Notes under the pieces: model-generated | What the model saw: only the letters and a program-made list of their open reading frames with translations | The model's database searches: none | Told to the model about the DNA's origin: nothing | DNA from: Naegleria gruberi | Taxonomy: Eukaryota | Direction: 5' to 3' (one strand) | Assembly (NCBI GenBank): GCA_000004985.1 | Contig: GG739489.1 | DNA: 1,229 nucleotides | Part shown: piece by piece, positions 168 through 1,229 of the stretch | Numbering within the stretch: the stretch's first letter is position 1 | How the letters are laid out: each line of letters begins with the position of its first letter | Program-made: the position numbers and the translations under genes

Positions 168-175
168 TATAAATA
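168..175 (+). promoter_or_regulatory. Second TATA-like element (TATAAATA), farther upstream
   Basis: Matches the TATA consensus but lies ~390 bp from the ATG and upstream of the repeated elements. It could be an alternative or irrelevant site. Confidence 0.15.
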
Positions 176-235: not shown

Positions 236-260
236 GTGCCCCGAAAAAGCTTTGCAAATA

Positions 261-283
261 TTTCTGAATTTCACCAAATTGGT
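261..283. promoter_or_regulatory. Copy 2 of the duplicated element TTTCTGAATTTCACCAAATTGGT; contains the perfect 13-bp palindrome CACCAAATTGGTG (272..284)
   Basis: Seen in sequence: the reverse complement of CACCAAATTGGTG is CACCAATTTGGTG, so 6-bp arms flank a central A/T and the palindrome is perfect. Core ACCAAATTGGT at 273..283. A perfect palindrome of this length in a promoter is typical of a dimeric transcription-factor site. Confidence 0.4.
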
Positions 284-360: not shown

Positions 361-494
361 TTTGTAGATATTTTCCAAGTCTCAACAGAAAAATCTTATT
401 TTGAAACTTTCAAAATTAGAGAAATTAGAAGAGAGAAAGGCACAGGAACAGTAAACAACAAGATATTTACAAACCAGAGTCAACTTGATGTTCA

Positions 495-551
495 ATGAAC
501 AATATTGGAAACGTATTTGAGAATGATTGTATAACTGATCAACAGCAATAA
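495..551 (+). other. Possible upstream ORF (18 codons, ATG495..TAA549-551) in the presumed 5' leader, ending 13 nt before the main ATG; a second short uATG at 488
   Basis: Seen in sequence: ATG AAC AAT ATT GGA AAC GTA TTT GAG AAT GAT TGT ATA ACT GAT CAA CAG CAA TAA. It is only relevant if the TSS lies upstream of 488, which cannot be determined here. The uATG contexts are weak (t/c at -3). Confidence 0.15.
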
Positions 552-564
552 TACAATTAAAAAA

Positions 565-732
565 ATGTCTGAACAACCAACTCAACCAGTCCAACCACAA
601 GGTGAAGAACATAAGGAAAAGAGATGTGCCAAGCACGTTCATGGTGAAGAACACAAGCACGAAGGTGAACACGTTCATTGCAGCAAGCACGTTCACGAAC
701 ATGAAGTCAAGCCAGAATCTGATATGGAATAA
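565..732 (+). CDS. Small (55 aa) hydrophilic His/Glu/Lys-rich protein with two Cys and repeated KHVH/EHVH motifs; putative metal-binding small protein; not in the ORF track
   Basis: Seen in sequence: ATG at 565 sits in an A7 tract (559..565) followed by TCT (AAAAAATGTCT), the yeast high-expression initiation context. Open to TAA at 730..732. Codon choice is almost entirely yeast-optimal (GAA x9, CAC/CAT, GGT, AAG, CCA, CAA, AGA, TCT, GTT/GTC), and no CTG codons occur. My translation: MSEQPTQPVQPQGEEHKEKRCAKHVHGEEHKHEGEHVHCSKHVHEHEVKPESDME. Consensus TATA box about 205 bp upstream, A-rich G-poor leader, AATAAA elements just downstream. The antisense ORF 382..702 uses poor codons (GTG, CTT) and is a Phe/Leu-rich mirror artefact. 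Confidence 0.65.
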   Translation: MSEQPTQPVQPQGEEHKEKRCAKHVHGEEHKHEGEHVHCSKHVHEHEVKPESDME

Positions 733-903
733 ATTTCATTACTATTAAGCTTAATAAATCAGTACTTGATCGACTTTCATATTTCCTATTTGTTGTTATC
801 TATCCATCATTAATCTTATTCAAAATAATGATTTGATGAAAGATTAAATAAATCTTTACAGTTCCAAAATCTGTATTTTGTAGATGAGTTACATCAATTA
901 GTT
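733..903. terminator. AT-rich 171-bp convergent intergenic spacer containing 3'-end formation signals for both genes
   Basis: AATAAA at 728..733 (overlapping the stop), 753..758 and 847..852 on the + strand; T-rich and TA-rich runs on both strands; no ORF. Typical of tail-to-tail yeast gene pairs. Exact poly(A) sites are not predictable from sequence. Confidence 0.4.
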
Positions 904-1229
904 TTATTGCTTGGTAACGTTGAAAATCATGTGACCAGTGAGTGCAGTTCCAACACCAGCAAACAATCCAAGTTGTACAGCTTCTGTTGGAGTAGTAGTA
1001 AATTCAAAGAGACCTTCACCTTGAGTCTTAAAGTAGGCATGATTAAATCTGATAGTATCAATGTTACTAGTGCTTGGGTATTTAATCTTGATATTAACAG
1101 GTTCATTAATCTTGAGAGTACCAGTGTTTGGTAAAATCAATTCACCTTTAGCATCATTCCAGTCCTTGAGGAATACTGGTCTATCAATCTTTTCTCCTGT
1201 AACTTCAAATGACAAGAGACATTCAGAAC
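904..1229 (-). CDS. 3' portion (C-terminal 108 codons plus stop) of a larger gene running off the right window edge; C-terminus has a Thr/Pro-rich linker, a ~20-aa hydrophobic segment and a short polar tail (possible membrane anchor or GPI-type signal)
   Basis: Seen in sequence: the minus-strand frame is open from the window edge (1229) to TAA (complement of 906..904). The track's start at 1215 is TTG rendered as M. Codons upstream of it (..S-E-C-L-L-S-F-E-V..) stay in frame with no stop, and the only nearby ATG (1222..1220) is out of frame. Codon usage is yeast-preferred (AGA, CCA, GGT, AAG, TTC, ACC/ACT, GAA). Protein tail: ...EGLFEFTTTPTEAVQLGLFAGVGTALTGHMIFNVTKQ*. The same-locus + ORF 907..1134 is Ser-rich, shorter and TTG-initiated, so it is judged spurious. 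Confidence 0.7.
   Translation of the reverse strand, partial: SECLLSFEVTGEKIDRPVFLKDWNDAKGELILPNTGTLKINEPVNIKIKYPSTSNIDTIRFNHAYFKTQGEGLFEFTTTPTEAVQLGLFAGVGTALTGHMIFNVTKQ

Follow-up and report, generated by a model that had tools for sequence, protein, structure and literature searches.

This locus raises two questions: whether a short, unlisted open reading frame is a gene, and what its histidine-rich product would do. The window, by which we mean the whole stretch of 1,229 nucleotides analysed here, is AT-rich throughout. It carries on its plus strand a 55-codon ATG ORF closed by a TAA stop (Table 1), whose translation is exactly the peptide proposed in an earlier note on this DNA. As that note had supposed, the ORF is absent from the ORF track because its 55 aa lie under the 60-aa default; it shows only when the setting is lowered. 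The start context and the downstream AATAAA that the note had claimed were also found, the first as AAAAAATGTCT, which fits what we take to be the A-rich start consensus of budding yeasts, and the second in three copies, one overlapping the TAA. Judging from the sequence, this is very probably a genuine small gene, presumably transcribed and translated, and its product is apparently an orphan. We favour a cytosolic, disordered His/Cys/Glu protein that would bind and buffer metals, most likely zinc, and give this reading a probability of roughly 0.4.

Table 1. Coordinates and properties of the features discussed in the text, numbered from the first nucleotide of the window.
Feature	Position	Strand	Remarks
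Candidate TATA box TATAAATA	168-175	+	motif scan
24-nt direct repeat ATTTCTGAAWWTCACCAAATKGGT, two copies	200-223, 260-283	+	3 mismatches, 60 bp apart
Candidate TATA box TATATAAA	353-360	+	205 bp upstream of ATG
uORF	488-520	+	10 codons
uORF	495-551	+	18 codons
uORF	523-534	+	3 codons; in the His frame, good context, ends 30 nt before the start
Start context AAAAAATGTCT	560..570	+	A at each of -5 to -1; Ser as codon 2
Predicted product MSEQPTQPVQPQGEEHKEKRCAKHVHGEEHKHEGEHVHCSKHVHEHEVKPESDME	565..732	+	55 aa, 6.4 kDa, pI 5.9
(x-Gln-Pro) x3, EQP-TQP-VQP	571..597	+	N-terminal
GEEHK module, two copies	601-615, 643-657	+	one synonymous CAT/CAC difference
C[AS]KHVH module: CAKHVH, CSKHVH	625..642, 679-696	+	two synonymous changes and one Ala/Ser
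Four tandem 18-nt/6-aa hexads HVHGEE, HKHEGE, HVHCSK, HVHEHE	634..705	+	start at residue 24
Peptides of the predicted product: Ac-SEQPTQPVQPQGEEHK, HVHGEEHK, HEGEHVHCSK, HVHEHEVKPESDME	within the 565..732 product		
AATAAA	728-733, 753-758, 847-852	+	motif scan; first overlaps the stop; first two are candidate 3'-end signals in the 23% GC spacer
106-aa antisense ORF	382..702	-	codon-on-codon complement of the His ORF, 183 nt past the sense start
Convergent neighbour, 3' end	904..1229	-	at least 107 codons, runs off the window

The peptide contains 10 histidines in 55 residues (18.2%, where the earlier note had given 16%), along with 12 Glu, six Lys and two Cys, the last at residues 21 and 39. 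The three HVH pairs, HKH, HEH and both cysteines are present as described, and the description of a chain without a hydrophobic core held up: aromatic and large aliphatic residues are absent (zero Leu, Ile, Phe, Trp or Tyr) and GRAVY is -1.79. The chain is laid out as MS-(EQP-TQP-VQP)-Q, followed by GEEHK-EKR-CAKHVH-GEEHK-HEGEHVH-CSKHVH-EHE and then by VKPESDME. Eight of the ten histidines fall into a period-6 HxH register (shuffle P = 0.0035), in which HxH and HxxxH spacings alternate and each registered His has partners at i+2 and i+4. Each C[AS]KHVH module is a candidate metal site composed of one Cys and two His.

The GEEHK and C[AS]KHVH modules each occur twice. Of the changes that separate the copies, taken together, three are synonymous and one is conservative, which corresponds to a pN/pS of roughly 0.14 if they are internal duplicates, a value from a small sample. 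Mostly silent differences are the outcome expected of selection on the peptide, and they hint at constraint on the peptide and not on the DNA; since no homologue was found, these internal repeats are the sole evidence of constraint. The sequence CACGTT, a Pho4/Cbf1-like half E-box, occurs three times in the ORF, each time encoding His-Val, and we judged it to be a by-product of the repeats.

No signal peptide, targeting sequence or hydrophobic segment was found in the 55-aa product. A single-sequence AlphaFold prediction contained no secondary structure and had a pLDDT of 48, weak evidence that agrees with disorder; with the strongly hydrophilic composition, it supports the intrinsic disorder that had been proposed. 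The computed net charge moves from -5.6 at pH 7 to +6.1 at pH 5. Two other identities were set aside. The string HEGEH (residues 32-36) matches the HExxH motif of zincin proteases, a coincidence in a peptide that is far too small and disordered, and a secreted histatin-like or Kex2-processed peptide would need the signal peptide that is absent.

Upstream, the TATA box of the earlier description is represented by two candidates, TATATAAA and TATAAATA, the former being the nearer. The segment from 400 to 564 is rich in A (47%) and poor in T (24%), a base bias that fits a sense-strand leader. The interval from the TATA box at 353 to the main ATG contains three upstream ATGs, at 488, 495 and 523. 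They would be in the leader only if transcription began upstream of them, for example 40-120 bp past the TATA box at 353; they would then count against simple constitutive high translation, and with a later start they would be irrelevant. The uORFs may reflect translational control, or transcription may begin downstream of them.

The 24-nt direct repeat further upstream was not matched in Markov nulls (0/200). Each copy contains ACC-N5-GGT (213-223 and 273-283; two found against 0.11 expected), and from their sequence we consider the two elements candidate regulatory sites. The zinc-responsive element (ZRE) recognised by Zap1 has the consensus ACCTTNAAGGT (PMC2535606), with its ACC and GGT ends as the most specific positions (PMC2688839). 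These ends are retained in ACCAAATGGGT at 213 and in ACCAAATTGGT at 273; the central bases are mismatched in both. Because they fit ACCTTNAAGGT at only six of its ten specified positions, the link to zinc is thin, and we take the resemblance as a lead only, a weak regulatory hint. A Rap1, Abf1 or Mcm1 reading of the repeat was set aside after poor matches by eye, and no STRE (AGGGG/CCCCT), HSE, iron (Aft-type), copper (Mac1/Ace1-type) or MRE consensus site was found upstream; the absence of copper, iron and stress sites counts against the favoured metal reading. An exact 11-mer, TGTTGTAAAAT, occurs at 104-114 and again at 225-235, directly after the first 24-nt copy, and its first occurrence is preceded by a palindrome, CCAAGGTTTGG, at 91-101, so the upstream element may exist in a third, degenerate form. 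The T-rich left edge of the window holds a 9-nt tandem repeat, GTTGATTTA, of 2.3 units at 7-27.

How would such a peptide work? In the reading that we favour, a single-exon gene would give a soluble, disordered protein of 55 residues, presumably located in the cytosol or nucleus given the lack of a signal peptide or targeting sequence. Its working part would be the four HxHxxx hexads, flanked by the paired GEEHK and C[AS]KHVH modules and set among Glu and Lys. Histidines at i/i+2 and i/i+4 would reversibly chelate divalent transition metals, assisted by the two Cys thiolates and nearby Glu carboxylates, and one chain could hold several ions. Zn2+ is our best guess, since the ligands are a mix of His, Cys and Glu and the upstream elements faintly resemble ZREs, with Ni2+, Co2+ and Cu as further possibilities. 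The protein could then buffer, store or donate metal, and would be expected to release it on acidification because all ten ligand histidines titrate near pH 6.

On chemical grounds it is reasonable to expect that the peptide would bind metal, given its regular HxH/HxxxH array and its pair of CxKHVH modules. Each of the two cysteines stands three residues before an HVH, with acidic residues around, and such an array of histidines combined with Cys and acids looks like the design expected for multi-ion chelation. There are precedents in which His-rich proteins that are small or disordered bind and store metals: Hpn, a protein of 60 aa with 28 His, sequesters nickel (PMC4671568), and His-rich segments of dehydrins bind divalent metals, Cu among them (PMC10358736). 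Several points weigh on the other side. With two Cys and 18% His, the peptide has a modest set of ligands next to Hpn (47% His) or the metallothioneins. In vitro binding of metals is common to all His-rich peptides and would by itself be no proof of a metal role. Three uATGs after the TATA box at 353 and ahead of the start are unusual for the mRNA of an abundant protein.

If the gene is real, it has been hidden by length cutoffs and is unrecognised by the family, structure and sequence databases searched, and it offers a simple case in which His-based buffering of metal, or its release gated by pH, could be put to the test in a yeast-like eukaryote. Its layout, a periodic array of histidines with paired Cys modules, can be read with unusual ease. 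The small cytosolic metal buffers known from such eukaryotes are Cys-based and mainly serve copper. A much bolder version, which we regard as a long shot, is that the peptide would found an unrecognised class of 'histidine metallothionein' in eukaryotic microbes, in which an abundant, free-standing cytosolic HxHxxx microprotein serves as a His/Cys/Glu buffer for labile zinc, or for another divalent metal, with release by acid and control through the duplicated ACC-N5-GGT element. Were this true, it would be a candidate cytosolic zinc buffer for budding yeasts; to our knowledge these yeasts have no zinc metallothionein, and we know of no cytosolic zinc buffer demonstrated in them.

The same disordered protein could instead be a stress-protective or pH-responsive polyampholyte whose histidines matter by their pKa and not by chelation, either shielding proteins or membranes in the manner of hydrophilins and dehydrins or serving as a His-based pH sensor or buffer. 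This, the main rival, is possible, and we lean towards doubting it. The evidence that the frame is coding serves it equally well, the lack of predicted structure suits it, and so does the flip of net charge between pH 7 and pH 5. Yeast hydrophilins are similarly small, abundant and stress-induced, and are defined by Gly above 6% and a hydrophilicity index above 1.0 (PMC3306391); the peptide has an index (-GRAVY) of 1.79, but its three Gly in 55 residues (5.5%) fall below the first threshold. The label 'hydrophilin-like' given to it in the earlier note is therefore right for hydrophilicity and narrowly misses on glycine. Dehydrin His-rich segments mediate membrane binding as well as metal binding, but a dehydrin by definition carries at least one K-segment, of core (D/E)KIK(D/E)K (PMC10358736), and the peptide lacks this segment, having no Ile and no KIK. 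Accumulation of the transcript under osmotic or dehydration stress is a further mark of hydrophilins, and the absence of STREs upstream argues against a stress role too. Finally, the HxH/HxxxH register, with a Cys placed beside each KHVH, is more specific than titration by pH would need. If the product is merely a lineage-restricted stress peptide, the locus is an ordinary orphan small gene.

Metal buffering and stress protection both presuppose that the frame is translated. It could also be non-functional: an ORF that arose by chance, or very recently in one lineage, within a purine-rich stretch, and that is either not translated or yields a product without function. Its length by itself is insignificant, since 31% of null sequences (903-nt Markov sequences of non-coding composition) contained an ATG ORF of 55 codons or more. 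Of the six frames, three run open through the region, the sequence is repetitive and of low complexity, and there are uATGs in the putative leader. Codon usage points strongly the other way. We scored the window with a codon table taken from its sole other gene, the convergent neighbour at 904..1229 (-), which avoids importing the table of another species. The His frame had a log-likelihood ratio (LLR) of +50 bits, whereas the other five frames gave -2 to -27. Non-coding windows of 165 nt (n = 796) averaged -22.6 with a standard deviation of 8.4 and a maximum of 0.7, which places the His frame 8.6 sd above them. The codon statistics of a neighbouring gene can in this way rescue genes of fewer than 60 aa.

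The choice of codons is consistent with this score. Among the degenerate codons, 46 of 53 belong to a preferred set of budding-yeast type, against 24.9±3.4 in synonymous draws from the non-coding base composition, and none of 20,000 simulations reached this count. All six Lys codons are AAG (P about 6e-4), a choice that runs counter to the AT bias and is the most telling single one in the ORF. GC content is 44% in the ORF, 29% upstream and 23% downstream, and by codon position in 565..732 it is 71, 27 and 34%. Ten His codons among 54 have P about 1e-6 under the non-coding composition, where about 1.4 would be expected. Tandem Repeats Finder reported no simple repeat in 565-732, which disposes of a simple-sequence DNA repeat as the origin of the pattern, and Rfam and tRNA scans of the window were empty. 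The perfect start context and internal duplicates that differ chiefly at silent sites also argue against a chance ORF, and young de novo ORFs typically do not have such codon adaptation. We conclude that the His frame very probably codes for protein, and we consider the non-functional reading unlikely.

The earlier note's claim of a strong coding signal with optimal codons thus survived, and two of its further claims did so in part. 'High expression' agrees with the biased codon choice, but much of the apparent optimality is inflated because GAA, CAA, CCA and AGA are also mutationally favoured in an AT-biased genome, and there may be uATGs in the leader. A 'yeast' origin is plausible, given the A-rich start, the AGA, CCA, GGT, GAA and AAG codons and the 171-bp convergent spacer; it is unproven because the neighbour has no homologue and uses CTC for five of its ten Leu codons. 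Leu CTC at such a frequency is unusual for Saccharomyces or Candida. A ciliate-type genetic code was rejected, as GC falls to 23% right after the TAA.

Searches for relatives bear on the same alternative. With the 55-aa peptide as query, no Pfam-A family was returned at E <= 10, a word-index search of 5.8 billion clusters gave no candidate, and a PDB sequence search was empty. An exhaustive phmmer search over 1.84 billion representative proteins had a single match, P0001, a 635-aa translated tandem repeat that we rejected as a relative because the similarity is compositional. Scanning JGI metagenomes, prokaryote genomes and IMG/VR at the DNA level with the back-translated peptide gave no relative, an exact-sequence locus look-up had no record, and literature string searches for substrings of the peptide, and likewise for small His-rich yeast proteins, returned nothing. 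The product is thus, as had been suggested, not a recognised named gene, and a lack of relatives among these proteins and DNA collections is what a chance ORF would predict. 'Orphan' is meant relative to the collections searched, with eukaryotic genome DNA outside their scope, and ORFs of 55 aa are rarely annotated.

A spliced gene would change the reading of the 5' end. In this alternative an upstream exon transcribed from the TATA box at 168 would end in ATG-G at 218-221, directly before a perfect GTATGT at 222-227, or the coding exon would be in another frame. The arrangement resembles a budding-yeast mini-exon, with TATAAATA about 45 bp upstream; AACTGAT and CAG at 533-545 could provide a weak branch point and acceptor, and the intron would take out all three uATGs. 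On the other hand, a CTAAC-type branch point occurs nowhere in the window, and the AG at 545, if joined to ATG-G, would lead into frame +1, which has an LLR of -6 bits where the His frame has +50; the His frame is itself closed upstream by an in-frame TAA at 532-534. GTATGT is also part of the first 24-nt copy and missing from the second, and it is not a rare sequence, with about 0.2 expected in about 560 nt by our own estimate. We therefore hold splicing of this kind to be very unlikely.

The last alternative, that the real gene is the antisense ORF 702..382 (-) with the His frame as its shadow, is so improbable as to be nearly negligible: although no other ORF over the region is as long and it extends well beyond the sense start in AT-rich DNA, its codon LLR is -6 bits, it lacks a comparable start context, its product is rich in Phe, Leu and Val as the complement of Glu, Lys and His codons predicts, it had no homologue in the 5.8-billion-cluster word index, and it is open as a by-product of a sense strand without TTA, CTA or TCA codons and a T-poor leader. 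We had included it in the searches partly because ORFs of 106 aa are likelier to be called in relatives and could reveal orthologous loci. A 100-codon cutoff would pick this antisense ORF.

The convergent neighbour is separated from the His ORF by a spacer of 171 bp with 23% GC. The last 107 residues of its product are beta-rich, and the hydrophobic tail that closes them, AVQLGLFAGVGTALTGHMIF-NVTKQ, is a candidate C-terminal membrane anchor or GPI-type signal. No relative of this fragment was found in Pfam, the PDB, the 5.8-billion-cluster word index or the DNA scans, and its AlphaFold prediction (pLDDT 41) was too poor for fold comparison.

To place the predicted metal-buffering peptide among known systems, we compared it with several families. 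Alternating histidines capture Zn or Ni in the (HX)n loops of ZIP and CDF zinc transporters and in the His-rich tails of SlyD, HypB and UreE. Those segments sit in larger folded or membrane proteins, whereas here the array makes up nearly the whole of a free-standing protein, and phmmer found no similarity to any of them. Yeast hydrophilins such as Sip18, Stf2, Hsp12 and Gre1 are, like the predicted peptide, small, highly hydrophilic, unstructured and cytosolic, but the known ones are not His-rich and have no homology to it. The fungal metallothioneins Cup1, Crs5 and Zym1 occupy the niche that we propose for it, being small, inducible cytosolic metal buffers without aromatic residues. Metallothioneins chelate through many Cys arranged in CxC, CxxC or CC clusters. 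The peptide has two Cys in 55 residues (3.6%) and no CxC, CxxC or CC, so its chemistry would be His-based.

Two families come nearer in chemistry. His-rich dehydrins, such as the KS-type HIRD11 of Arabidopsis and CuCOR15 of citrus, are disordered and rich in Lys, Glu and His, with HK and HxH segments that bind Cu, Zn and further divalent ions (PMC10358736), and their composition is very similar to that of the GEEHK...HKHEGEH stretch. They are plant-specific, and apart from the missing K-segment there was no homology by phmmer. Hpn and Hpn-2 of Helicobacter pylori are alike in size (60 and 66 against 55 aa), soluble, and combine His with a few Cys and with Glu and Gln; in Hpn, however, 28 of 60 residues are His, mostly in runs, and there are CC pairs, whereas the 10 His of the peptide are never adjacent, follow the HxHxxx pattern and are accompanied by single Cys (PMC4671568). 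Accordingly the peptide has no HH and no CC, and neither phmmer nor the word-index search returned homology to Hpn. Hpn is bacterial, and the window carries gene signals of eukaryotic type. The two have in common a presumed job, to sequester divalent metals and hand them on, and Hpn is very abundant where the peptide is codon-optimised. By analogy, and while being a member of none of these families, the peptide would in its working come nearest to Hpn or to the His-rich part of a dehydrin, placed in the niche of a metallothionein.
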